Positions 3,131-63,506 are shown, numbered from the stretch's first letter. The stretch is 64,000 nucleotides of DNA from Bacteroidota bacterium (GCA_046160825.1 JBJXHC010000038.1:3697-67696); one strand, 5' to 3'. Notes: a model not told the origin generated them from the letters alone. Program-made: numbers and translations.

Positions 3131-4294
3131 TTACCTGATGGCTCGCTGGAGCGTATTGATCAGGTCGAGTTTCTCCCACGAAAATTCCTTCTCATCCCTG
3201 CCGAAGTGTCCGTAGGCAGCAGTCTTTCGGTAGATCGGACGTCGCAATTGCAGTCGCGCAATCAACCCCGCCGGCGTCATGTCGATTTCCCTCTTGATCA
3301 CCCTCTCCAGCTCTTCATCAGGAATTCGACCTGTACCGATTGTATCGACGTGGATGGAAACCGGCTCCGCGACACCAATAGCATATGCAACCTGAATCAG
3401 ACATTCGTTTGCAAGTCCGGCACCGACGACATTTTTTGCTATGTGGCGGGCTGCGTACGCGGCGCTGCGATCAACCTTTGAAGGATCCTTTCCGGAAAAT
3501 GCGCCGCCGCCATGCGGTGCGCGGCCACCATACGTATCGACAATAATTTTTCTTCCCGTGAGTCCACTATCGCCGTGAGGTCCGCCAATCTCAAACTTGC
3601 CGGTCGGGTTCACATGAATAACGAGTGAACTGTCGCGCAAGCGCTTGGGGATGACGTATTCGATGACATGCTTCGTTACGTCGCGTTTAATTCTTTGCTG
3701 GCTGATATTGGGGTCGTGCTGTGTGGAAATAACCACCGTGTGAATCCGTATCGGCTTGCGTCCCTGGTATTCCACGGTCACCTGCGACTTCGCATCCGGA
3801 CGCAGATACGGCATCAACTTCGGATTGTTCTTGCGGATGTCGGCAAGGCGTTTCACCAGTTTGTGCGAGTACTGAAGTGCCATCGGCATGTATTCCGGTG
3901 TTTCGTCGGTTGCGTATCCAAACATCATTCCCTGGTCACCCGCACCCTGCTTCTTTTTCTTCTTTTTGTTCGCATCAACACCCATGGCAATGTCCGGCGA
4001 CTGGGAATGCAACGCCGCGAGAATGCCGCAGGAGTTTGCCTCAAACATGTACTCTGCTCGCGTATAGCCAATCTCTCTGATCACTGCCCGCACAACGTCG
4101 GGAATGTTCACCCACGCATTGGTCGTGACCTCTCCTGCAACAACCACCTGACCCGTCGTGACGAGTGTTTCGCATGCAACGCGGGAATGTGGATCCTGTT
4201 TCAGCATTTCGTCCAGCACAGCATCGGAGATCTGATCCGCTACCTTGTCGGGATGTCCTTCAGAAACAGATTCCGATGTGAATAGATACGACAT
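3131..4294 (-). CDS. metK: S-adenosylmethionine synthetase
   Basis: [25 protein letters not shown] and [22 protein letters not shown] are MetK hallmarks. It lies immediately upstream of ahcY as an activated-methyl-cycle pair. Confidence 0.95.
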
Positions 4295-5579: not shown

Positions 5580-6650
5580 ATGCCAAAGAAAACTCCGCCG
5601 CGGGGTACACCGTCCCGCAAGAAGCAACACGTAGAACTTACGGTGACAAAAGATGTACGTTTCCAACGAAAAACCACAGGGCTGGCCGATCTGGAGTTTG
5701 TGCATAACGCGCTGCCAGAGATTGACCTCGCCGAACTCGATACTTCCACCAGGTTCTTATCCCACACAATCAGCCTCCCCTTCATGGTTTCATGCATGAC
5801 GGGCGGATATCCCGATGCACTGCGAATCAACCGGCAACTTGCCGAGATATGCGAAGAACTTGTCATCCCCATGGGGGTGGGAAGTCAGCGTCAGGCACTT
5901 GAGGATTCCAGGTACCATCGTACGTTCAGTATTGTTCGCGAGGCAGCGCCCTCCATTCCGATCGTCGGAAATATTGGTGCAAGTGAAGTCGCTCATCTCA
6001 CGTCGCCGGTCTCCATCCAACGACTTGTTGATTTGATTCGGGCCGATGCGTTCGCAGTACACCTCAACCCGCTGCAGGAATTTCTGCAACCGGAGGGGTC
6101 GACGAAATTCTCTGGAGTCCTTAAAGGTATCGAGCAACTGGTAAAGGGCCTGAATGTTCCTGTGATCGTCAAGGAGATTGGTGCGGGACTTTCCGCTGAA
6201 GTCTCGGAGCGGCTTTACAATGCCGGCGTCCGATATATCGACGTCGCCGGTGCAGGCGGAACGAGCTGGGCTGGCGTTGAAATACTCAGGAGTAAGAATC
6301 GGGATTTCGCCCGGTCCTTTTGGGATTGGGGAATTCCCACGGCACATGCCGTGCGTGAGACCGCCCGCCTGAAGACCGACTCACGCACATTCACCCTCAT
6401 CGCATCCGGAGGAATTGAGAACGGACTGGACGTGGCAAAATGTATCGCATTGGGGGCTGATATGTGTTCTGCGGCGCGACCGGTGTTACAGACATTGATG
6501 CTGCATGGCAAGAAAGCCGCCCTTCTCCTCATCGGTCAATGGACGCAGGAATTACGAGGCGCAATGTTCCTGACGGGTTCAAAAAACATTGCCGCACTCC
6601 AGCGCGCTCCACTCGTGACCTACAGGCCGCATGCACGCATCTCAATTTGA
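5580..6650 (+). CDS. fni: Isopentenyl-diphosphate delta-isomerase, type 2 (FMN-dependent)
   Basis: RKKQHVE...VRF at the N-terminus, MTGG, and the GAGGTSWAGVE glycine-rich FMN-binding signature identify IDI-2. The start was trimmed to the MPKKTPP Met. Confidence 0.85.
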   Translation: MPKKTPPRGTPSRKKQHVELTVTKDVRFQRKTTGLADLEFVHNALPEIDLAELDTSTRFLSHTISLPFMVSCMTGGYPDALRINRQLAEICEELVIPMGVGSQRQALEDSRYHRTFSIVREAAPSIPIVGNIGASEVAHLTSPVSIQRLVDLIRADAFAVHLNPLQEFLQPEGSTKFSGVLKGIEQLVKGLNVPVIVKEIGAGLSAEVSERLYNAGVRYIDVAGAGGTSWAGVEILRSKNRDFARSFWDWGIPTAHAVRETARLKTDSRTFTLIASGGIENGLDVAKCIALGADMCSAARPVLQTLMLHGKKAALLLIGQWTQELRGAMFLTGSKNIAALQRAPLVTYRPHARISI

Positions 6651-7638
6651 ACGCCGATATCAGACTCTTCGCTGGTTAGTCGACAAACGGGTCGCACGGC
6701 TTGCAGGAAAGTGGGAATCCAGCGACATTGAAAAGGGATGCCGGTATGTCCTCCGCGCGCGCGGCAAACGCGTCCGCGCGATACTTCTGCTTCTTTCATG
6801 CGAAGCAGTGGGTGGACATGCACGGAACGCTGTCGATGCCGGCGCGGCCGTTGAGGCGATGCATAATTTCACTCTTGTCCACGATGACATCATGGACAAC
6901 GCGGATGCGAGAAGGGGACGCCCCACCGTTCATCGCAAGTGGGATGCAAATACCGCCTTGCTCGTGGGCGATGTGCTGCTCGGACTCGCGTACAAAAGTG
7001 TGGGAAAAACTGATTCAAACAATCTCCGGAAAATCATTTCCCTTTTTACCGAGGGATTGCTTGAAGTATGTGAGGGACAGGCCTTGGATCTGGAGTTTGA
7101 ACGACGGGGCTCCGTCTCCCTTGATGAATACTTCGTTATGATTGAAAAGAAAACAGCACGGCTCATCTCGATGTCCACGGAGTTGGGTGGCTTGCTTGGC
7201 AACGGTACCGCCCAGCAAGTGAAACAATTGTACAAGTTTGGTCGTCATCTCGGACGGGCATTTCAACTGCAGGATGACCTGCTGGACGTCGCGGCCGACG
7301 AAAAGAAGTTCGGCAAGACCATCGGCGGCGATATCATCGAAGGCAAGAAGACCTTCCTGCTACTCACGGCATGGAAACGAGCGGTCGGAGGCGACAAGAG
7401 ATTTCTCGGGAGCATCATGCAACCAAAGCAAGCATCGCTGTTATCCTCAATTGCAAAACAAAAGAGAATCGCGACGGTCACAGCACTCTATGAAAAATAT
7501 GGGGTGATGGGTGAAGCGAGAAAACAAATTGCCCGGGAGACTGATGCAGCAGTACGGGCGCTTGCCAAACTTCCACACAACCGGGCAACCAGAATGCTCG
7601 GATGGTTCTCAGACGTTCTTCTGCACAGGACTGCCTGA
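6631..7638 (+). CDS. Polyprenyl diphosphate synthase (GGPP synthase-like trans-prenyltransferase)
   Basis: Both aspartate-rich motifs are present (LVHDDIMDNADARRG and FQLQDDLLD). It overlaps the fni stop by 20 nt, which suggests translational coupling. Confidence 0.85.
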   Translation: MHASQFERRYQTLRWLVDKRVARLAGKWESSDIEKGCRYVLRARGKRVRAILLLLSCEAVGGHARNAVDAGAAVEAMHNFTLVHDDIMDNADARRGRPTVHRKWDANTALLVGDVLLGLAYKSVGKTDSNNLRKIISLFTEGLLEVCEGQALDLEFERRGSVSLDEYFVMIEKKTARLISMSTELGGLLGNGTAQQVKQLYKFGRHLGRAFQLQDDLLDVAADEKKFGKTIGGDIIEGKKTFLLLTAWKRAVGGDKRFLGSIMQPKQASLLSSIAKQKRIATVTALYEKYGVMGEARKQIARETDAAVRALAKLPHNRATRMLGWFSDVLLHRTA

Positions 7639-11486: not shown

Positions 11487-14306
11487 ATGCGTCGTTTCCG
11501 AGTGCTGTCTATTTCCATCCTTCTTCTCATCTGTGGGTCCACCACCGTCGCGCAATTCTTCTATTTTGGCCGTAACAAAGTCCAGTACACCGATTTTGAC
11601 TGGCACGTCCTCAAGACCGAACACTTCGACATCTATTATTATCCTGAGATGAAAGACCTTGCCGAGCGCGGGGCGTTTTTTGCCGAGGAGGCGTACAAGG
11701 AACTCGAGACAAAATTCAACCATTCGCTCAACAACCGCGTCCCTCTCATTTTTTATAGCTCGCACCTTCACTTCCAGCAGACCAATACCACGGGCGGTTT
11801 CATCCCGGAAGGTGTTGGGGGATTTTTTGAATTCCTGAAGGGCCGGGTCGTCATCCCATCCGACGGTTCCACCTACCAATTCCGACACGTCATCCGGCAT
11901 GAGATGGTGCATGTGTTCATGCACAGCAAGATTGCGCGCGTCCTTATCGATCATCGCAAGACGCAGGATCGCTTTCCGCCGCTCTGGTTCACCGAGGGGC
12001 TCGCCGAATACTGGTCCACCGATTGGGACACACAAGCGGAAATGGTGATGCGCGATGCTGTGCTCAGCGATATTATCGTCGGCCTCGATGACATGGATCG
12101 CATCTACGGATCGTTCCTGATGTACAAAGAAGGACAGGCTGTCCTCGAATATATCGGCAAGACGTATGGTGAGGAAAAGATTCTCCTGCTGATGGAGAAT
12201 TTCTGGAAGGTGAGCTCGTTCAGTGAGGTCTTCAAAATTACACTCGGGAAGAACTACAAAGAATTTGACGAAGAGTGGCTCTACGCACTCAAGAAAAAAT
12301 ACTATCCCCTTCTTGCCACCTACGACTCGCCGAGTAGCGTCACGGTCAATGTCGTAAAGGAAGGGTTCAACGCGAAACCTGTGGTGTTCGAGCACGATTC
12401 CACCCGCGACGTGTATTTCATCGGCAACCAGACCGGGTACACGGGCATCTATAAAAAATCGTTGGACGACGAGAAACCGGATGCTTCCGCCACTAACGTT
12501 GTACAAGGTGAGAAGTCGGATGAGTTTGAGGCGTTCCATCCATTCCGTACCCGTATGGATATTTCCAAAGATGGCGTGCTCGCATTCACGACGAAGAGCG
12601 GCGAGAGTGATGTTCTGCACTTATATAATCTGTTCAACGAGAAAATTATTGAGACCTTCCGTTTTCGCGAACTCGTCAGCATCGGGTCAACGTCGTGGTC
12701 ACCAGACGGGAAGCACGTTGCGTTTGCTTCGATTAACAAGAGCGGCAATAACGATTTGTATATCCTGAATACCGAAACCCATGATCTCCGCAAACTCACC
12801 AACGATTATTATGACGACCGTGACCCGGCATGGTCGCCACGCGGCGACCAGATTGCCTTCAGCTCCGACCGGACGCCATACGGCAAGAAAGGCAAGTACA
12901 GTCTTTTTCTTTTTGATATCGAGTCGGGAACAATCACCTATCTCACATACGGAAACGAAAGCTCAGGCTCACCGGCATGGTCTAAAGATGGAAGCAAACT
13001 CGCTTTCACATGCGATGCAGACGGCGCACAAAATATCTGGATGATGAATATGCGTGATTCGGTGCTGGCCATGCGTTCCATGACCAAGGTAACGCATTTC
13101 ACCACTGCTGCCTTCGATCCGACCTGGACAAAAGACGGCGATCTCGTGTTCGCTGCGTTTGAAGGGTTCAGTTTCCAGATTCGAATGCTGAAAAATATCG
13201 AGTCTACATTTGACAGCGCGCGCACCGTCCGGATGATCGATCTCTACAAGGAAAAGCCCTGGGAGAGCAAGTCCATTGCCGGCGTTTCAGAGGTCAAGAC
13301 ATTCAAGTACCAAGGCGACTACAGTCTTGATATCGCACAGAGCGCGATTTCCACCGATCCGGTTTTCGGAACATCTGGAGGGGCGTTCGTTGCGTTGAGC
13401 GATTTGCTGGGCAACGATCAATACTATTTCCTGCTCTACAATACCGCGCAATCGCAGGACGAGCTTCTTTCCAGTTTCAATATCGCCATCTCACGCGTCT
13501 CACTAAGCCAGCGCACAAACTATGCTTATGGCATCTACCGGTTCAGCGGGCGGCGCTACGACCTGACGGACAAGGACGAATTTTATTATGAGCGAGTATT
13601 CGGCGGATACCTCGCACTCAGCTATCCACTGACAAAATTCCAGCGCATAGAAACCTCCGTCAGTCTAAGCAACTCCAACAAGGACGTGGACTTCATTATT
13701 GAAGACCGGAAGGCATTGCTTCTATCCAACTCTGTCTCGTTCACACACGATAATTCGCTCTGGGGTCCAAGCGGACCGTTGGATGGCAGCAGGTTCAACC
13801 TGACGCTCGCCTTCACGTCGGACATTCAATACTCGAACGTCAATTACTACACGGCGATCATCGACTACCGTCATTATTTCAGACTCTCGCAACGCAGCAC
13901 TTTTGCCTCGCGTGCTTGGCTCTTTTACAATGACGGCAAGGAATCGCGCCGATTCGTGATGGGTGGGAGTTGGGATTTACGCGGCTTCCCACGGTGGTCG
14001 ATTCGCGGTGAAAAACTCTGGTTGACAAGTCAGGAACTCCGCTTCCCATTCATCGATCAACTCGCGATCCGGTTTCCATTTGTCGGGTTGAGTTTCTGGT
14101 CGATCCGGGGGGCACTCTTCTTTGATGCGGGAAGTGCATGGGACGACGAGTATTCCGAGACGCTCGGCAGCGTCGGCGGCGGGTTGCGTATGAACCTCGC
14201 CGGGGCATTCGTCCTCCGGTATGATATCGGCAAAAGGATCGAGAATAATTTCAGTACGATCCAAAATGATCTGTTCCATCAATTCTTCTTCGGCTGGGAT
14301 TTCTAA
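11487..14306 (+). CDS. Outer-membrane protein with a fused architecture: signal peptide, HExxH metallopeptidase-like domain, TolB-like PD40 beta-propeller repeats, and a C-terminal Omp85/BamA-type 16-strand beta-barrel
   Basis: - The signal peptide is MRRFRVLSISILLLICGSTTVAQ.
- The HExxH motif lies in RHVIRHEMVHVFMH.
- PD40 repeats include SPDGKHVAFASINKSGNNDLYILN, WSPRGDQIAFSSDR and PAWSKDGSKLAFTCDADGAQNIWMMN.
- The C-terminus carries the conserved Omp85 loop-6 motif (MGGSWDLRGF) and a terminal aromatic residue (FFFGWDF).
- The start was trimmed from the track ORF 11394. Confidence 0.8.
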   Translation: MRRFRVLSISILLLICGSTTVAQFFYFGRNKVQYTDFDWHVLKTEHFDIYYYPEMKDLAERGAFFAEEAYKELETKFNHSLNNRVPLIFYSSHLHFQQTNTTGGFIPEGVGGFFEFLKGRVVIPSDGSTYQFRHVIRHEMVHVFMHSKIARVLIDHRKTQDRFPPLWFTEGLAEYWSTDWDTQAEMVMRDAVLSDIIVGLDDMDRIYGSFLMYKEGQAVLEYIGKTYGEEKILLLMENFWKVSSFSEVFKITLGKNYKEFDEEWLYALKKKYYPLLATYDSPSSVTVNVVKEGFNAKPVVFEHDSTRDVYFIGNQTGYTGIYKKSLDDEKPDASATNVVQGEKSDEFEAFHPFRTRMDISKDGVLAFTTKSGESDVLHLYNLFNEKIIETFRFRELVSIGSTSWSPDGKHVAFASINKSGNNDLYILNTETHDLRKLTNDYYDDRDPAWSPRGDQIAFSSDRTPYGKKGKYSLFLFDIESGTITYLTYGNESSGSPAWSKDGSKLAFTCDADGAQNIWMMNMRDSVLAMRSMTKVTHFTTAAFDPTWTKDGDLVFAAFEGFSFQIRMLKNIESTFDSARTVRMIDLYKEKPWESKSIAGVSEVKTFKYQGDYSLDIAQSAISTDPVFGTSGGAFVALSDLLGNDQYYFLLYNTAQSQDELLSSFNIAISRVSLSQRTNYAYGIYRFSGRRYDLTDKDEFYYERVFGGYLALSYPLTKFQRIETSVSLSNSNKDVDFIIEDRKALLLSNSVSFTHDNSLWGPSGPLDGSRFNLTLAFTSDIQYSNVNYYTAIIDYRHYFRLSQRSTFASRAWLFYNDGKESRRFVMGGSWDLRGFPRWSIRGEKLWLTSQELRFPFIDQLAIRFPFVGLSFWSIRGALFFDAGSAWDDEYSETLGSVGGGLRMNLAGAFVLRYDIGKRIENNFSTIQNDLFHQFFFGWDF

Positions 14307-51361: not shown

Positions 51362-53782
51362 TCAAAGATGAATAGAAAGATTGAAGAACATGTTTCTTTC
51401 TGCCCCAACAAAAAACTGATCACCTTCGCCGTAGGCGGCATAAAGTCTATCAGAGAGATTATTTACCTGTAGCTTCGCCTCAATATTGACATCATCAAAA
51501 AGATCCTCCATTGTATACGCAATCCATCCATCACTCACGAAATATGCGTCGACGGTGTTCGTTTCATTCTTGAAGTTATCTGTATACTGTTTGCCGACAA
51601 ATCTTCCCGCAAGAGACACCGCCACATTTTCATATCGATACGTCACTCGCAGGTTTGCAAGAACATCCGGAAATCCGGCGATCGGATTATTATTCAGACT
51701 GAGCGGACTGTCCGATGAAAAATCCGTGTGCCTGACAAATGAGTTCCGACTGAATGTTGCATTGCCGCGAAGCTCAAGTGACGGAGCGGGTTTATAGGTG
51801 CCCGTGAGTTCAATGCCGATATGTCGCGTGCGGGATGCATTTCCAGTGATAGGCTGACCAAACCGATCCACTTGGCCGCTTTTCACAATTTCATTCGTAA
51901 ACTCCATCCAATACACGTTTGCCGTTGTGCTCACCTCTGGTGCGGAAAACCCGCCGCCAAATTCTATATCAAGTAGCCGCTCCGGTTTCACCAATGGTTG
52001 GTCAAAACTGAATTGACCATTTGCATCAACGGCAAACTGCGGAACAATCGCTCCCCATGATGCGGGGGTGCTCGCTTCCGCCGCATCATACAGGTTCTTC
52101 AACCGCGGTTCGCGGGAGGTGTAAGCAAGGCTGAGATAGGTGTTCCACTTCTCATCAAGATTGTAGTTGATGCCAATCCGGGGATTCAGGAAATGGTATG
52201 GAACCGCAAAGTTCGTATTCAAGAATTTCTCGTCGTGGAGACGGTAACAATTAAAGACGTACTGCAAATTCACCATGAGGTTGAGATCAGGCTGAAGAGA
52301 GTAAAGTTCGTGGGCGTAGAACGAGATAATGTCCTTTGCTCCTTTGTACTCGTAATAACGATAGTCCTCGGGAATGGAGACTGGGCTCATATCAACGCGC
52401 TGAAGTCTTCCCCAGTGGAGCGACCGGTGGAAACGCACCTCGGCACCGGCGATGAATTCCCCATCGTCGTGCTTCAGAGTTATCCTTGGCAACCAGCCGA
52501 ATTGTTTGTTTTTCACTGTTGCGCGAATCAGCGCACTGCCAAAGTACAGGGTATCGGGATCACCAACAATACTGAACCCGTTTCCCTGCGTGAGTCGATA
52601 ATACGAGAACGGTGCCCACGTTCCATCATAGTCGAAAAATCCGTCGCCAAGGATGATGAATGCTGTATTATTCAATGTCAGCGTAGGGGTCAAGCGCCAC
52701 TCATGTAGCAACTCATAATGGGGCTGGGAGAAATTCTCCATTTCCTCTTCGCGAAGGATTGGATTTGTGCGCCGCTTTGATTTGTCCTTCACGTCCAACT
52801 TGGGAATCCCATAGTAGGCAAGATGGTCGGAAATCGGTCCGCCATAGAAGTTCACCTGTGTCGTCATGCTTTCATCGTAGCGAATCGCACCGAAAAAATA
52901 ACTATTGAAATCAACCCAGGATCGGTCACGGTAGCCGCTGCTCAGAATCTTGGAAAGCCGACCGTGTAGCGCGTAGCGATTCTCGATCAGCCCGGAGCTG
53001 AACGACGCGGAGTATTTTCGAGTGTTAAAGCTGCCAACGCCCGCCGATAGGCTGAGCTCTCTCTTCCGCCCAAAGCTTGAGGTCACAAGATTGACAGAAC
53101 CGCCGATGGCCGGAGATCCATAGAAGGCACTCCCCGCTCCCCGCTGTACCTGTATATCCTCCAGACTCCCGGCAATGTCGGGGATATCCAACCAATAAAC
53201 ATTGTGATCTTCAGGATCGTTCTGAGGAATACCGTTAACCATCACGGCAATACGGCGTGCATCAAAACCGCGGATATTCAGATATGTATAGCCAATGCCA
53301 TTGCCCGCATCGGAGTAGTACGTTGTCGAGGGAAGTTCGGAGAGAAGGACAGGAATATCCTGCGTTGTGTATTGATCTCGTATATCCGTCCTGCTGAGTG
53401 TGGAGAATGTGACCGGTGTTTCGCGCTCACGACCTCGTGTACCACTTACCGTAATCGGCTGACCCGTAATCATGGTTGGTTCAAGCGTGAAGTCGATGGA
53501 TACGCCTTCCGTCGTCACGTCAACTCGTTTGGTTCTTGCAGCATAACCCACGAATGACACCCGGATTTCATACGCACCGGGAAGAACACCATCAATGCGG
53601 AATTCACCGGTGGCGTCTGAGAACGCGCCAAGCTGTGTACCGATAACGGTAACGTTTGCTCCGGGAAGGAGATTTGATGTGGCGGCCTCACGCACTTTGC
53701 CGGCGATGAATGCTGGTGTTTGTGCGAACGACAGAGGCGCGGCAAACAACAGAATGATCAGAATAGCAGAGAACCGATTCAT
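51362..53782 (-). CDS. TonB-dependent outer-membrane receptor (with an N-terminal carboxypeptidase-regulatory-like domain)
   Basis: It has a signal peptide, a plug and a 22-strand barrel, and ends in the terminal aromatic NLSIHL. It is 806 aa. It lies directly downstream of a TPP riboswitch. Confidence 0.9.
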   Translation of the reverse strand: MNRFSAILIILLFAAPLSFAQTPAFIAGKVREAATSNLLPGANVTVIGTQLGAFSDATGEFRIDGVLPGAYEIRVSFVGYAARTKRVDVTTEGVSIDFTLEPTMITGQPITVSGTRGRERETPVTFSTLSRTDIRDQYTTQDIPVLLSELPSTTYYSDAGNGIGYTYLNIRGFDARRIAVMVNGIPQNDPEDHNVYWLDIPDIAGSLEDIQVQRGAGSAFYGSPAIGGSVNLVTSSFGRKRELSLSAGVGSFNTRKYSASFSSGLIENRYALHGRLSKILSSGYRDRSWVDFNSYFFGAIRYDESMTTQVNFYGGPISDHLAYYGIPKLDVKDKSKRRTNPILREEEMENFSQPHYELLHEWRLTPTLTLNNTAFIILGDGFFDYDGTWAPFSYYRLTQGNGFSIVGDPDTLYFGSALIRATVKNKQFGWLPRITLKHDDGEFIAGAEVRFHRSLHWGRLQRVDMSPVSIPEDYRYYEYKGAKDIISFYAHELYSLQPDLNLMVNLQYVFNCYRLHDEKFLNTNFAVPYHFLNPRIGINYNLDEKWNTYLSLAYTSREPRLKNLYDAAEASTPASWGAIVPQFAVDANGQFSFDQPLVKPERLLDIEFGGGFSAPEVSTTANVYWMEFTNEIVKSGQVDRFGQPITGNASRTRHIGIELTGTYKPAPSLELRGNATFSRNSFVRHTDFSSDSPLSLNNNPIAGFPDVLANLRVTYRYENVAVSLAGRFVGKQYTDNFKNETNTVDAYFVSDGWIAYTMEDLFDDVNIEAKLQVNNLSDRLYAAYGEGDQFFVGAERNMFFNLSIHL

Positions 53783-58132: not shown

Positions 58133-58169
58133 GACTAACGACTCTACAGACTCTCAACTCTATAGACTG
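58133..58169. repeat. Intergenic 9-bp tandem-repeat element (copy R0; units ACTCTACAG / ACTCTATAG)
   Basis: GACTAACGACTCTACAGACTCTCAACTCTATAGACTG lies between the dinB stop and the kynU start. It is in the reverse orientation relative to the R1 left arm. Confidence 0.6.
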
Positions 58170-58174
58170 ATTTG

Positions 58175-59392
58175 TTATTCATCAAAATCAAAATCCTCCG
58201 GCGAGGGGATATTGGTGAAAGCAATACGCGTCGGGGCTGCTGCCTGCAATGCGTGCATACCACCGAAATGCAGCAGATGGCCCCCGTATTTCGTGTTGAG
58301 TTTGTCCATCGCCTCCGAGAGTCGCGTGCGCTTCACTTCGTCAGAAAATAACGAGAAGTTATGCGCCGAGTCATGGACGAGGTCGAACAGCGTCACGCCG
58401 ACTGCCAGCAGCTTGCCTTGCGGCAGATTCTTCCAGAGTTTCTGCAGGGCTTCGAGGAGCGTGAGTGTATCCTGACTTTCAACGAATGAAATATGATCCG
58501 TCCAGGATGTGCGGTTCATGAATTTCACGTCCACCCTCAAGTGCGATGCCCAATAGTGCATGCGCCGGAGTCGCGCGGCGGCCTTGTGCAAGAGTTGCTG
58601 TGCGATGGCAAATGCATCCGTTGGCGTTCTCATCTTCGGAGGCAGGACATGCGAATGCCCGACGGTTCGACGACGCGTCAGGGTCTCCGTGAGATCTTCA
58701 CCACGCAACCAGTACCAATATCGCTCGCCGATAATCCCCTGCCAGATATTCTTCATCTCAGGCTTTGAGAGATTCAGTAATTGCTCGGCTGTCACTATCC
58801 CCCTCTGAGCAAGCCGTTTCTCCATATTCGCGCCAATGCCGGGGAAATCACGTGTCTTCAAAGGATACAATTTCTGCGGCAGGTCAGCCTGAGTAATGAC
58901 AACGAGGCCATCCGGCTTCTGCATGTCACTCGCCACCTTTGCAAGGAACCTGTTGGTCGCAATTCCAACCGAACAGCGCAACATTTCACCGACATCAGCA
59001 TAGATCGTCTGCTTGATCTTGGCCGCCAATGCGACGGCCTTCTCGACTTCGCGCTGGCTGCCTGTGAGTTGACATGCCATTTCATCGATGGACAGCACCG
59101 CTGCAACGGGTACGCAAGATTCAACGGCGGTGACAATCCTTGTGTGATACTCGACGTACTTCGCATGTCGAGCTTCGACAAGCAGGAGGCCGGGACACAT
59201 CTTCTTCGCATCACCAACGCGTGTGCCTGTCTTCACGCCAAATGCCTTGGCTTCATAGCTTGCAGCGATACAAAACGTCGTGTCTGCTATCAGCGGAACG
59301 ACGGCAACCGGCTTCCCCCGAAGCTCGGAACGCAGTTGCTGCTCGACAGAAGCAAAATAAGAATTGAGATCGACAAGAAGCCAGCGAACCAA
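58175..59392 (-). CDS. dinB: Y-family DNA polymerase (DNA polymerase IV-like)
   Basis: LLVDLNSYFASVEQ, SIDE and the thumb/little-finger organisation are present. It is 405 aa. The start codon is TTG as given in the track. Confidence 0.8.
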   Translation of the reverse strand: MVRWLLVDLNSYFASVEQQLRSELRGKPVAVVPLIADTTFCIAASYEAKAFGVKTGTRVGDAKKMCPGLLLVEARHAKYVEYHTRIVTAVESCVPVAAVLSIDEMACQLTGSQREVEKAVALAAKIKQTIYADVGEMLRCSVGIATNRFLAKVASDMQKPDGLVVITQADLPQKLYPLKTRDFPGIGANMEKRLAQRGIVTAEQLLNLSKPEMKNIWQGIIGERYWYWLRGEDLTETLTRRRTVGHSHVLPPKMRTPTDAFAIAQQLLHKAAARLRRMHYWASHLRVDVKFMNRTSWTDHISFVESQDTLTLLEALQKLWKNLPQGKLLAVGVTLFDLVHDSAHNFSLFSDEVKRTRLSEAMDKLNTKYGGHLLHFGGMHALQAAAPTRIAFTNIPSPEDFDFDE

Positions 59393-59413
59393 ATCATCCT
59401 CGGATAACTCAAA

Positions 59414-59522
59414 TGGAGTTTGTGGAGTCTGTAGAGTCTGTAGAGTTCATAGAGTTTATGGAGTTTCGGGGTGTCTCTATAGAACTCTATGAACCCCACG
59501 AACTCTCCAGACTCTATAAACT
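59414..59522. repeat. Intergenic tandem-repeat element (copy R1): six forward 9-mers (GTYYRTRGA) followed by an inverted arm, overall palindromic
   Basis: TGGAGTTTGTGGAGTCTGTAGAGTCTGTAGAGTTCATAGAGTTTATGGAGTTT...CTCTATAGAACTCTATGAACCCCACGAACTCTCCAGACTCTATAAACTG lies between the dinB start and the ACMSD stop, which it overlaps. Confidence 0.65.
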
Positions 59523-60512
59523 GCTCTTTCCCAGCCACTCCAACGCCGTCCCACGCAACAATTGCTCTTGTGTTTTCTTATCGAAGCCCAGCGATTCAAT
59601 CAACTTTCCCGGCTCTTGCTCACCGAGCGGGAAAGGATAATCAGAACCGAGAGCTATGCGATTCGCGCCGACAAGCTCAATGAGATACTTGAGCATCGCA
59701 GCATCGTGCGTGAGTGAATCAACGAAGAAGCGGCCGAGGTACTTGCGCGGGTTGACCGGGTTATCAATGGCGACAAGATCAGGACGGACATCAAAGCCGT
59801 GTTCAATGCGGCCGAGCGTTCCGGGAAATGCGCCGCCACCGTGAGCAAATGCAACTCGCAGTTTTGGCAGACGCTCGAACACGCCGCCGAAGATCATTGA
59901 ACAAATGGCAAGCGAGACTTCCGCGGGCATACCAACGAGCCATGGAAGCCAGTACTTCGGCATGCGCTCCTTGCCCATCATATCCCACGGATGGACGAAT
60001 ACGGCCGCTCCCAATTCCTCCGCTGCCTGGAAGACCGGGAACAGATTCGGATCATTCAGGTTCCAGTCGTTCACGTGCGTACCGATTTCTATTCCGGCAA
60101 GACCGAGTTGCTTGACGCAACGCTCCAGTTCTTTGATCGCCAGATCGGGCGACTGCATGGGCACGATACCGAGTCCGGCGAACCGCTGTGGATACGCGGA
60201 AACAACCGACGCGATATGATCGTTGAGAAGCTTGCAGAGATCGTGTGCGTCATTCGGCTTTGCCCAATAACAAAACATCACCGGCACTGTAGAAAGCACT
60301 TGCATCTGCACATCGTGTTGGTCGCATACGCCAATCCGCACCTCCGGACTCCAGAGATTTTCCTCCACGTCGCGGAAGTGCTTCCCATCGATCACCATTC
60401 TCGCACAGCCCGGTTTGTGATGTTCGAGGTTCACAAAGCCGCCATAGCCGTACTTCGCCTTAAAGTCCGGCAGGACCTTGGGAAGAATGTGTGTGTGGAT
60501 GTCGATTTTCAT
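59514..60512 (-). CDS. 2-amino-3-carboxymuconate-6-semialdehyde decarboxylase-like amidohydrolase
   Basis: The amidohydrolase-2 fold begins MKIDIHTHILP and carries HPWDMMG and FAHGGGAFP. The start was trimmed to the MKIDIHTH Met. Confidence 0.8.
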   Translation of the reverse strand: MKIDIHTHILPKVLPDFKAKYGYGGFVNLEHHKPGCARMVIDGKHFRDVEENLWSPEVRIGVCDQHDVQMQVLSTVPVMFCYWAKPNDAHDLCKLLNDHIASVVSAYPQRFAGLGIVPMQSPDLAIKELERCVKQLGLAGIEIGTHVNDWNLNDPNLFPVFQAAEELGAAVFVHPWDMMGKERMPKYWLPWLVGMPAEVSLAICSMIFGGVFERLPKLRVAFAHGGGAFPGTLGRIEHGFDVRPDLVAIDNPVNPRKYLGRFFVDSLTHDAAMLKYLIELVGANRIALGSDYPFPLGEQEPGKLIESLGFDKKTQEQLLRGTALEWLGKSSL

Positions 60513-60520
60513 TCTGTCAT

Positions 60521-61048
60521 TCACACCGGCTTCTGCGGCCTCTCCATCTTCGTCCCGCACTTCTTGCACGTGCAATGCTCTGCGTTGTTGTAGAACTTGT
60601 CGAAGATCGGCGGAAGCTGGGTGACGAGGTTTGTCACTTGCAGGAACTCCTCATACAACTTGTCGCCACACTTCTCGCAGAACCACAAGAAGCCATCAGT
60701 CTCACCGGGCGTCCGCTGGCGCTCAATCACGAGTCCCACTGTATTGGCAGGACGCTGCGGCGAATGCGGCGTCTTCGGAGGCAGAAGGAATATCTCTCCC
60801 TCACGAATCTTGATGTCCCTCGGCTTTCCATCCTCTACAATCTTGACCGTGATATCTCCTTCGACCTGATAGAAGAACTCCTCACCCTCGTCGTAGTGGT
60901 AATCCTTGCGCGCATTGGGTCCACCAACAACCATGACGATGAAGTCGGAATCCTCATACACCATCTTGTTGCCGACGGGGGGTTTCAATAAATGCCGGTG
61001 GTCGTTAATCCATTGCTTAAAATTGATCGGAGGTAGGAGTTTTCCCAT
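60521..61048 (-). CDS. 3-hydroxyanthranilate 3,4-dioxygenase
   Basis: It has a cupin fold with the iron ligands (HYDEGEEFFYQVEGD ... LLPPKTPHSPQR) and a C-terminal rubredoxin-like Cys4 (CEKCG...CKKCG). Confidence 0.85.
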   Translation of the reverse strand: MGKLLPPINFKQWINDHRHLLKPPVGNKMVYEDSDFIVMVVGGPNARKDYHYDEGEEFFYQVEGDITVKIVEDGKPRDIKIREGEIFLLPPKTPHSPQRPANTVGLVIERQRTPGETDGFLWFCEKCGDKLYEEFLQVTNLVTQLPPIFDKFYNNAEHCTCKKCGTKMERPQKPV

Positions 61049-61062
61049 GTAAACCTCTGGCT

Positions 61063-61097
61063 TAGTTTATGGAGTTTGTGGAGTTCATATAGAGTTA
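61063..61097. repeat. Intergenic tandem-repeat element (copy R2, forward orientation)
   Basis: TAGTTTATGGAGTTTGTGGAGTTCATATAGAGTT lies between the HAAO start and the four-helix-bundle gene stop. Confidence 0.6.
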
Positions 61098-61460
61098 TGT
61101 GCTTCTGAGATACTTGATGAGTCCTGAGATCATTCGTGAGATTTCATTACAATCGGAATAGAGTTTATCAAACGATTCCTGCGTGATGTATCGCTGGTCC
61201 ATTGCAACATAGAGTGCGGCTTGGACTTCAGCAGTTGAGCCATGTGCCACGAAAAGGAACTGACTGAATTCTTTGTTCGTTCTTCGAGCAAAGCCTTCCG
61301 CAATGTTCAACATAATCGAAACCGAAGCTCTTCGAATCTGATCCCGCAATCCAAAGTCCTTGGTGAACTTGCCGTCCGCGGTAATCCTGTAGACCTCACC
61401 AACGAGTTCTCTTGCTTTCTGCCATGCAAGTATGTCGTCGAACCTCTCGAACTTCGCCAT
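61095..61460 (-). CDS. Four-helix-bundle protein (23S rRNA intervening-sequence-protein family, TIGR02436-like)
   Basis: It is 121 aa. MAKFERFDDILAWQKARELVGEVYRI is typical of the family. Confidence 0.7.
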   Translation of the reverse strand: MAKFERFDDILAWQKARELVGEVYRITADGKFTKDFGLRDQIRRASVSIMLNIAEGFARRTNKEFSQFLFVAHGSTAEVQAALYVAMDQRYITQESFDKLYSDCNEISRMISGLIKYLRST

Positions 61461-61505
61461 CCCAACTCCATAGACTCCACGAACTCTATGAACTCTAAAA
61501 CACTG
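61461..61505. repeat. Intergenic tandem-repeat element (copy R3, reverse orientation)
   Basis: CCCAACTCCATAGACTCCACGAACTCTATGAACTCTAAAACACTG lies between the four-helix-bundle gene start and the RidA stop. Confidence 0.6.
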
Positions 61506-61511
61506 TCTCCG

Positions 61512-61931
61512 CTAAACCACTGCAATCACCTTCAATTCTATCGCTATCGGCGTTGGTAGCGCGTTTACTTCGATGGTCGTGCGACACGGCTGGTTGTCTT
61601 TGAAATATTCGGCGTAGATCCGGTTGAACGTCGGGAAGTCCTTTTTCATGTTGGTGAGAAACACAGTCACATCCACAATCTTACCCCAACTTGAGCCGGC
61701 ATCTTCGAGAATTGCCTTCACGTTTTTGAATAGCGAATGGCATTGTGCTTCGATGTCATAGGAAACGATGTTACCATTGGCATCAAGTTCCACACCGGGG
61801 ATTTTCTCCATCCCGCGTTCACGCGGCCCCACGCCGGAAAGAAAGAGAAGATTCCCCACCTTGCGCGCATGCGGATACAAGCCGACCGGTTCCGGTGCAT
61901 TCGAAGACATGATATTGTCAGACTGACTCAT
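61512..61931 (-). CDS. RidA-family protein (2-aminomuconate deaminase-like, from context)
   Basis: It has the RidA fold (GNLLFLSGVGPRE ... ELKVIAVV). It sits between the aldehyde dehydrogenase and the dioxygenase/decarboxylase genes. Confidence 0.7.
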   Translation of the reverse strand: MSQSDNIMSSNAPEPVGLYPHARKVGNLLFLSGVGPRERGMEKIPGVELDANGNIVSYDIEAQCHSLFKNVKAILEDAGSSWGKIVDVTVFLTNMKKDFPTFNRIYAEYFKDNQPCRTTIEVNALPTPIAIELKVIAVV

Positions 61932-61954
61932 TCGCTCTCGACCAACGGCTAATT

Positions 61955-61990
61955 GACTCTATGAACTCCATAAACTCTAAGAACTTATAG
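61955..61990. repeat. Intergenic tandem-repeat element (copy R4, reverse orientation)
   Basis: GACTCTATGAACTCCATAAACTCTAAGAACTTATAG lies between the RidA start and the ALDH stop. Confidence 0.6.
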
Positions 61991-63427: not shown

Positions 63428-63506
63428 AGAAAATAATTCTACTTGAGGAATGGAAAACGAAGGATCCCTTACGAGCCTCTCCCGCGTTATTTCTCAGTGC
63501 TCATCG

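Follow-up and report, generated by a model that had tools for sequence, protein, structure and literature searches.

Nine-base tandem arrays in a kynurenine operon of a Bacteroidota bacterium: probable arms of inverted-repeat elements that typically enclose four-helix-bundle protein genes

Genes and tandem arrays of the kynurenine operon

The DNA stretch analysed here, 64,000 nucleotides from a Bacteroidota bacterium (GCA_046160825.1, JBJXHC010000038.1:3697-67696; hereafter the window), contains an operon of the kynurenine pathway, and the gaps between its genes at positions 58133–61990 carry tandem arrays of a degenerate 9-bp unit. The gene names given in the preliminary description of this region were supported by Pfam and NCBIfam. 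Namely, the operon encodes, all on the minus strand, TDO, ALDH, RidA, a four-helix-bundle (4HB) protein, HAAO, ACMSD, a Y-family DNA polymerase, kynureninase (kynU), and KMO. The array unit is RGAGTYYRT; arrays that show this unit in the mRNA sense are referred to as S, and their complement as A. The order in the transcript is ALDH – S – ridA – S – 4HB – A – HAAO/ACMSD – S·A – polymerase – S – kynU. Accordingly, the 4HB gene is enclosed by an S arm, which ends at its ATG, and an A arm, which begins at its stop codon. The operon holds one complete S-4HB-A element, one S/A hairpin without cargo, and two lone S arms.

The cargo gene of the complete element (61095–61460, minus strand) is present as a single copy within the window and is oriented with the operon, between ridA and HAAO. 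It encodes a 121-amino-acid protein with full-length matches to the 23S-rRNA-intervening-sequence protein family: PF05635 (E = 1.4e-37; 128.6 bits; cut-off 33.8) and TIGR02436 (E = 9e-37; 125.6 bits; cut-off 24). Its relatives in the PDB are 2GSC (XCC0516; E = 8e-15) and 2RLD. The S arm at 61461–61500, with units on the minus strand, reads AGAGTTCAT AGAGTTCGT GGAGTCTAT GGAGTTGGG-ATG and lies directly 5' of the 4HB start; its final GGAG, 5 nt before the ATG, is Shine-Dalgarno-like. The A arm occupies 61055–61097 (units at 61062–61097, plus strand), between the 4HB stop codon and the ribosome-binding site of HAAO. No rRNA match was obtained in the window; the element is located between ridA and HAAO and not in a helix of 23S rRNA. 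The idea that the 4HB protein is an RNase of the HEPN superfamily was dropped because the HEPN survey makes no mention of the 4HB family.

The cargo-less hairpin (59416–59522) lies in the ACMSD/polymerase gap and consists of an S arm at 59480–59524 (units on the minus strand), a spacer, and an A arm at 59415–59468 (units on the plus strand). The ALDH/ridA gap contains a lone S arm of about four units, TAAGTTCTT AGAGTTTAT GGAGTTCAT AGAGTCAAT in the mRNA sense (61952–61987; units on the minus strand), and the polymerase/kynU gap contains a lone degenerate S arm (58133–58169; units on the minus strand). The nonamer itself is non-palindromic, and palindromy arises only where two arrays oppose each other. 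The overlap of arrays with stop codons of upstream genes, described earlier, holds for ACMSD (59514–59516, within the first S unit of the hairpin), 4HB (61095–61097), and ALDH (61985–61987, in the first unit of its S arm), but the RidA stop codon lies outside an array. The ribosome-binding site of every downstream gene is kept outside the array. All arrays are located between co-directional genes inside the operon and not at its promoter.

The presence of the five arrays was confirmed by a search with the two-unit pattern RGAGTYYRTRGAGTYYRT, which gave 24 matches with up to three mismatches in the window as compared to 2.9 ± 1.8 in shuffled sequences. All 18 matches within 58.1–62.0 kb fall in the five arrays, while the six matches outside all have three mismatches. 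Also, the motif-bearing arrays of period 9 detected with Tandem Repeats Finder are confined to 58.1–62.0 kb of the window. Of the six gaps that measure 25 bp or more in the interval from TDO to kynU, five contain an array, as compared to 0 of the 24 other gaps of the window (Fisher p = 4e-5; simple gene model). The preliminary description, which had placed an array at every intergenic junction, thus needs some correction: the 79-bp TDO/ALDH gap (63428–63506) has no array, and there is no gap at the HAAO/ACMSD and kynU/KMO junctions, where the genes overlap.

A consensus promoter or intrinsic terminator was found within none of the window arrays, and the counts of such sites equalled those in shuffled sequences. 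A search of the window and ten array loci against Rfam at gathering thresholds retrieved only a thiamine pyrophosphate (TPP) riboswitch, which is located elsewhere in the window; the array region itself gave one spurious match to a plant microRNA precursor, far below the threshold. No paper was found by a literature search for the repeat as a string. A foreign origin of the operon was ruled out, as the GC content is flat across the window (0.50–0.54).

Complementarity of the arms

The opposed arrays of the ACMSD/polymerase gap had been described as a potential long hairpin, and RNA folding bears this out (minimum free energy, MFE, of −55.8 kcal/mol; z = −5.6 versus shuffles). The duplex of the S and A arms of the 4HB element in the window has an energy of −32.9 kcal/mol, compared with −18.7 ± 3.8 kcal/mol when the A arm is shuffled. 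Pairing of the S and A arms around the 4HB gene exceeds that of shuffled arms by 3–6 standard deviations in the window and in four other loci, one from Chloroflexi (L111) and three operons related to that of the window (L122, L123, and L124). Non-cognate combinations of S and A arms pair well only within one unit type.

Association of 4HB genes with tandem arrays

The association between 4HB genes and inverted arrays was assessed in 80 metagenomic loci with relatives of the window 4HB (45–69% identity), 73 of which had 120 nt on both sides of the gene. A strong array was defined as one of period 6 to 10 with at least 19 of 27 positions matching, and 123 open reading frames (ORFs) in the same loci served as controls. 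Strong arrays were present upstream in 63% and downstream in 67% of the 73 4HB loci; the respective values for the controls were 7% and 10%. When the downstream flank was reverse-complemented, it had at least three 7-mers in common with the upstream flank in 75% of the 4HB loci and in 21% of the controls. Arrays numbered 2.9 per kb in the 150 nt next to 4HB genes and about 0.1 per kb at greater distances.

The dominant array period in the flanks of 4HB genes is 7, with periods 8 and 9 being minorities. The units agree between the two arms of one 4HB locus and differ between loci, but a core, RRGTY, is common to periods 7, 8, and 9 (GGAGTCT, GAGAGTT, GGGTTCA, and AGTCGCTC). An excess of G over C was observed in 80% of the upstream arms and in 16% of the downstream arms. 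The two closest relatives of the window 4HB outside its clade also have arms of period 9. Likeness of the 4HB proteins and likeness of the units are weakly correlated (Spearman −0.14, p = 8e-5), with 53.6% protein identity in pairs with the same period versus 51.1%.

Of 61 4HB genes, 53 share the orientation of the upstream neighbour, and of 60, 52 share that of the downstream neighbour (p about 1e-9); the median gap between 4HB and its neighbours is 70–80 bp. Because of this co-orientation and the short gaps, we conclude that 4HB genes sit in sense orientation inside host transcription units.

Arrays in related operons

Corresponding operons of other genomes show that the arrays persist at the same junctions and in the same S/A order (L206, L122, L123, and L124), while the unit has undergone concerted replacement in arms and junctions alike. 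In the sister genome, whose operon shares 87% DNA identity with that of the window (L206), arrays are kept at four junctions, including ALDH/ridA, with differing numbers of units. Its ACMSD/polymerase gap measures 87 bp as compared to 121 bp in the window, one unit fewer follows the 4HB gene, and the polymerase/kynU gap is 3 bp long and has no array. Genome CHB1 (L122), the operon enzymes of which are 61–84% identical to those of the window, matches the window in the places of the 4HB and polymerase genes, in the five junctions that hold arrays, and in the S/A order of these arrays. The unit at four of these five junctions is TTAGTCTRT instead of RGAGTYYRT; the polymerase/kynU junction (L122/L059) has a long A arm and a weak S arm. 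An array of a different unit is present at the ALDH/ridA junction of both CHB1 and L124. The 4HB genes of L123 and L124 are decayed, yet complementary arms of still other units persist around them.

Two further relatives (L120 and L121) possess the enzymes with gaps of 6–27 bp between the genes and contain neither arrays nor a 4HB gene nor a polymerase gene. The view that these two are the closest relatives, which was suggested by HAAO identity alone and would imply repeated clean loss of the arrays, is not supported by per-gene identities. Since these identities do not place L120 and L121 nearer to the window than the operons with arrays, a single ancestral gain followed by long persistence is equally likely as repeated loss.

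The Y-family (IMS/DinB-like) polymerase gene of the window (58175–59392, minus strand; PF00817 and PF11799) is flanked by arrays on both sides, and it had been proposed that the repeats explain how this gene came to lie in a catabolic operon. The comparison with orthologous operons, which had been suggested for this purpose, separates the two distributions: L124 has a polymerase gene without flanking arrays, L206 has an array on one side only, and L123 has arrays and 4HB without a polymerase gene. The proposal is not supported by these relatives, and we do not regard the polymerase gene as part of the element. Four related kynurenine operons have this gene in the interval from ACMSD to kynureninase, i.e. 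at the above position in the window, at 3811–5031 in L206, at 11719–12930 in L122, and at 11699–12934 in L124, and it is absent from L120, L121, and L123.

Some operon gaps hold other short tandem arrays. Those of L123 (14461–14590 and 15647–15765) contain seven copies of GAAATCC, three copies of CCCACAT, and five to eight copies of a 14-mer, which indicates that one genome can carry several unit families. In CHB1 (L122), opposed arrays of the CACGAAG/CACAAAG type lie between TDO and an SDR gene (6649–6744) and between SDR and ALDH (7534–7637), forming a second family beside TTAGTCTRT.

Distribution of the nonamer beyond the operon

An exact three-unit nonamer pattern, scanned over one genome per species, matched at least 119 stretches; the counts in this section refer to the matches listed. 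Of 131 arrays, 32 lie inside long ORFs and represent mostly GGAGTCCGT-type coding repeats of high-GC actinobacteria. The remaining arrays, about three quarters, are located outside long ORFs and next to unrelated genes. They were found in Anaerolineae, Dehalococcoidia, Acidobacteriota, Saprospiraceae and other Bacteroidota, Ignavibacteria/Chlorobi, Omnitrophota, Parabeggiatoa, Competibacteraceae, and two archaeal metagenome-assembled genomes (MAGs). No protein family recurs beside the arrays, the neighbours being unrelated housekeeping genes. Also, an S·A hairpin of the same nonamer is present in the sister genome at a second locus (L046), between two unrelated co-directional genes. The motif had previously been described as locus-specific on the basis of the window. 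This is true within the window, where the other 24 gaps are free of arrays, but not beyond it.

Several genomes contain many copies: 17 contigs of the Acidobacteriota MAG CAYREJ01, eight loci in the Anaerolineales MAG JACKAU01, and six loci in JACKAT01. Arrays that could be classified by context are situated between co-directional (42), convergent (6), or divergent (6) genes. As in the window, S arms abut the stop codon of the upstream gene and A arms lie near the downstream gene's start codon. Close pairs of arrays have the order "+ then −" in 16 cases and "− then +" in none; the polarity of the element is therefore fixed, with S preceding A on either strand. The spacers within the pairs range from 21 to about 470 bp. 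A 4HB gene is present in only two of the at least 119 array-bearing stretches. Namely, the spacer between AGAGTTYRT arms in the Chloroflexi locus L111 holds a 4HB gene with 59% identity to that of the window, and a 4HB gene directly adjoins an array in Dehalococcoidia (L030). A phage origin was considered and rejected: 2.9 million viral contigs gave 15 matches, coding and non-coding mixed, none of them with a 4HB gene.

The array contigs of CAYREJ01 (L008, L022, L052, L053, L055, L058, L063, L064, L069, L078, L080, L082, L097, L106, L107, L114, and L116) include many short ones that start or end in a nonamer array and have a conserved inner flank, AGAGTTGAGAGTTCCACAA, in common. The element is numerous enough in this genome to break the assembly. 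Orthologous sites of two Anaerolineae MAGs (L004, 4170–4260; L017, 2455–2545) contain, beside the nonamer arm, an inner module in opposite orientations. This module is composed of a stem, ctggagcg...cgctccag, around two small hairpins, and its sequence looks like the product of an inversion between its own inverted repeats.

Relationship to known repeat systems

One close likeness is to the intervening sequences of 23S rRNA genes in Leptospira and Coxiella, which carry a cargo of the same PF05635 family in sense orientation in the host transcript (Warrier et al., PMC4990558). In the intervening sequence of Coxiella, tandem GACAGAT heptamers lie directly upstream of the S23p ORF, two to three copies depending on the strain plus one degenerate copy. 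The termini form a 28-bp stem, inside which RNase III cuts in vitro, and the S23p protein appears not to be made (PMC4990558). The window element resembles these sequences in having tandem repeats directly upstream of the ORF and complementary ends that are able to pair around it. In the intervening sequences, repeat numbers vary by strain and some lineages have a decayed ORF within a persisting stem, likewise in the kynurenine operons. There are also clear differences. Helix 25 or 45 of 23S rRNA is the site of the intervening sequences, whereas the window element is flanked by protein-coding genes of a catabolic operon; the window arms consist purely of 9-mer arrays, in contrast to the combination of heptamers with unique sequence in the intervening sequences; and a cargo-less hairpin and half-arms of the same unit occupy neighbouring junctions. 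RNase III cutting is an in vitro result for Coxiella, whereas the window element is known from sequence. Being located outside rRNA, it is not an intervening sequence proper.

The second relationship is to dispersed heptamers, i.e. the short tandemly repeated repetitive (STRR) sequences of cyanobacteria, GGGAATC of Xanthomonas and GGGGAYT of Nostoc (Rehm et al., PMC4692102), and TAACTGA of Beggiatoaceae, Cyanobacteria, and Bacteroidetes (PMC4679880). Like the window arrays, these are arranged head-to-tail, mostly intergenic, including inside operons, and occur singly or as convergent inverted pairs; their positions are kept between relatives, while lengths vary, and their distribution across phyla is patchy. 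In X. campestris, GGGAATC arrays were reported at 186 sites, with 70 convergent inverted pairs, and Xanthomonas heptamer arrays are conserved in position and variable in length (PMC4692102). The same study ascribed heptamer over-representation to slippage and noted that the number of units differs between Xanthomonas species. The window arrays differ in having a unit of 9 instead of 7 bp, so that they do not belong to the heptamer family, and in their host, which is a MAG group of Bacteroidota/Chlorobi-like bacteria.

The Xanthomonas heptamers also flank the 4HB gene of their genome, in the same way as the window arrays flank theirs. The product of this gene shares 86% identity with the PDB 2GSC protein, and the gene itself separates accB from accC; there is a GGGAATC array on its upstream side and a complementary one on its downstream side, and another lone array is located 3.4 kb away. 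Apart from this insertion (L222, 4001–4330; L225, 4001–4381), the accB-accC pair is highly conserved. Downstream of accC in X. campestris (L222, 5858–6327), there is also a tandem repeat of 97 bp (4.9 copies, 90% identity).

Repetitive extragenic palindromic (REP) sequences, bacterial interspersed mosaic elements (BIMEs, including REPINs), and their RAYT genes are the third system to be compared. Like the window arrays, REP/BIME sequences are extragenic, occur in both orientations, and often form hairpin-forming inverted pairs inside operons; both systems also comprise one gene in single copy within flanking repeats, together with many copies that carry no cargo, which for the nonamer were seen in other genomes. 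A REP unit is, however, an imperfect palindrome of 20–40 nt, in contrast to the tandem non-palindromic 9-mer, and RAYT is a tyrosine transposase of the IS200/IS605 type, in contrast to a 121-amino-acid four-helix bundle. The window nonamer is common to several phyla, unlike REP/BIME sequences. Because of the differing unit structure and associated gene, the arrays are not a REP/RAYT system. The earlier proposal of a REP/BIME-like or small non-autonomous repeat points in the right direction but misses that the arrays are the arms of a 4HB-carrying element. Compared with miniature inverted-repeat transposable elements, inverted arms are present, and no target-site duplication was recognisable in the comparison with the array-free sites of L120 and L121.

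Within the literature searched, repeats beside S23p were noted by the Coxiella study alone, and a general statement that 4HB genes lie inside inverted tandem arrays was not found, although one may exist beyond it. The text of PMC4692102 contains neither S23 nor 23S, that of PMC4679880 contains neither S23 nor 'intervening' nor 'four helix', and the 4HB family is mentioned in neither. A published survey (PMC3936711) counted 18 genes of the 4HB family inside cas loci.

Interpretation of the arrays

We consider it fairly probable that the five arrays come from a single family of inverted-repeat elements that are made of short tandem repeats and typically enclose 4HB genes, i.e. that they are an intervening-sequence-like and STRR-like passenger transcribed with the operon. 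This interpretation draws on the complementary arms, the S/A polarity, a cargo that belongs to the 4HB family, the general occurrence of such arms around 4HB genes, a nonamer distribution that spans many phyla, and arrays that persist at the junctions. STRR/heptamer arrays of cyanobacteria, Xanthomonas, and Beggiatoa and the 4HB (S23p) family have been described separately for about 30 years. They occur together as one element, usually in sense orientation inside ordinary operons, such as those for kynurenine degradation and accBC, and not only in rRNA. For annotation, this means that arrays inside operons should be read as arms of an element and not as operon-specific operators.

As promoter- or terminator-like sites are lacking in all arrays, the latter would be co-transcribed in the operon mRNA, where the S and A arms may pair into long double-stranded stems. 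By analogy with the 23S intervening sequences of Coxiella and Leptospira, these stems could be substrates of RNase III. The cutting would free the 4HB message and divide the polycistronic mRNA into segments. The elements would be inserted between a stop codon and the following ribosome-binding site and be tolerated as passengers or act as mild modulators of expression, with their arms presumably held complementary through homogenisation at the DNA level.

Several observations weigh against this interpretation. That the arrays are transcribed, that their arms pair in vivo, and that RNase III cuts them is inferred. The fold of the complete 481-nt S-4HB-A RNA is no better than those of shuffled sequences (z = −0.5), and its MFE structure uses the A arm only partly. 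Arm pairing was more stable for the sense strand at 40 loci and for the antisense strand at 33 (p = 0.5); a G-U signature of RNA-level selection is therefore lacking, and the complementarity may be purely a matter of DNA. No target-site duplication or insertion footprint was recognised in the comparison with the array-free operons of L120 and L121, and the nonamer census of the source genome covers the 64-kb window alone. Finally, five arrays in 3.9 kb of the operon, a pattern that recurs in CHB1, far exceed the density of about 0.1 per kb in the vicinity of other 4HB genes, which hints at an operon-specific factor outside the passenger model.

The arrays are not operator sites for a tryptophan-catabolism regulator. 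The preliminary description had offered this role among others and had named wide occurrence at unrelated intergenic sites as the finding that would contradict it; by that measure the idea fails, since nonamer arrays do occur widely at such sites. Arrayed operators for a dedicated transcription factor would account for the local clustering only, and this explanation is scarcely credible, given that the arrays are located within the operon, across stop codons and away from the promoter, that the sister genome and many phyla have the same arrays beside unrelated genes, and that orthologous operons have a wholly different unit or no arrays at all. Quite improbable, too, is that we are dealing with neutral simple-sequence repeats produced by polymerase slippage at permissive intergenic sites, with neither identity as an element nor function. 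Slippage agrees with the differences in unit number between the window and L206, between Coxiella strains, and between Xanthomonas species, and was invoked for heptamers in PMC4692102. It leaves unaccounted, however, the strict S-then-A polarity (16 to 0 among the matches listed), the complementarity of paired arms, the RRGTY core common to periods 7, 8, and 9, the tie to one gene family and its co-orientation with neighbours, and the use of one unit at several junctions of a genome and of another unit in the next. It is somewhat less improbable, albeit still unlikely, that the arrays are host-adaptive REP-like elements retained to set stability or translation of segments of the kynurenine mRNA, for example so as to keep the enzymes around reactive intermediates in balance, with 4HB being incidental. 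Such a role would fit the filling of five of six operon gaps as opposed to 0 of 24 elsewhere in the window, the same junctions and S/A order in CHB1 despite enzyme identities of 61–84%, the very stable ACMSD/polymerase hairpin, the position of all downstream ribosome-binding sites outside the arrays, and the location of S arms at upstream stops and A arms near downstream starts in other genomes also. L120 and L121, however, run the same enzymes with array-free gaps of 6–27 bp, the polymerase/kynU array is missing in L206, identical arrays lie beside unrelated genes in many phyla, and pairing has no strand-specific signature.

Another explanation, itself doubtful, gives the 4HB protein an active part: it would bind the repeat units as RNA or as single- or double-stranded DNA and be needed for spread, homogenisation, or maintenance of the arrays, in the manner of RAYT and REP/REPIN. 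A genome would then have one or a few 4HB genes within an inverted pair, besides tens to hundreds of scattered arrays that lack cargo. In its favour, nearly all sampled 4HB genes lie inside an array pair of their own genome's unit, arrays far outnumber 4HB genes (present in two of at least 119 stretches among the matches listed; 186 arrays in Xanthomonas), and changes of the unit are concerted at several junctions as 4HB diverges. In addition, 4HB proteins with like units or equal period are slightly more alike, period-9 arms accompany the two closest 4HB relatives outside the clade, and the 59%-identical 4HB of Chloroflexi locus L111 lies between AGAGTTYRT arms. Avd of diversity-generating retroelements, which is homologous to 4HB and forms a pentamer that binds nucleic acid and reverse transcriptase, also counts for such a role. 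Against it, this support is purely correlational, the correlation between protein and unit is weak and its pairs are non-independent, Pfam and NCBIfam recognise no catalytic domain in the 121-amino-acid protein, arms persist in L123 and L124 though the 4HB gene is broken, and the Coxiella protein appears not to be made (PMC4990558). Only tentatively, then, could 4HB be proposed as the long-sought partner of STRR-like arrays, in a RAYT/REPIN-like symbiosis across bacteria and some archaea. If this were true, the 4HB of each genome would reside in one inverted pair of its own unit and act on tens to hundreds of cargo-less arrays, and the 23S rRNA intervening sequences would be a special case in which the element landed in rRNA.

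Other features of the window

The TPP riboswitch mentioned above (RF00059; 53852–53953, minus strand; 73.8 bits; E = 2.5e-12) is located upstream of a gene for a TonB-dependent receptor (51362–53782). In the relative L121, genes for a thiamine pyrophosphokinase and an SSF transporter come after that for the receptor. The riboswitch and the receptor probably form a unit for thiamine salvage.

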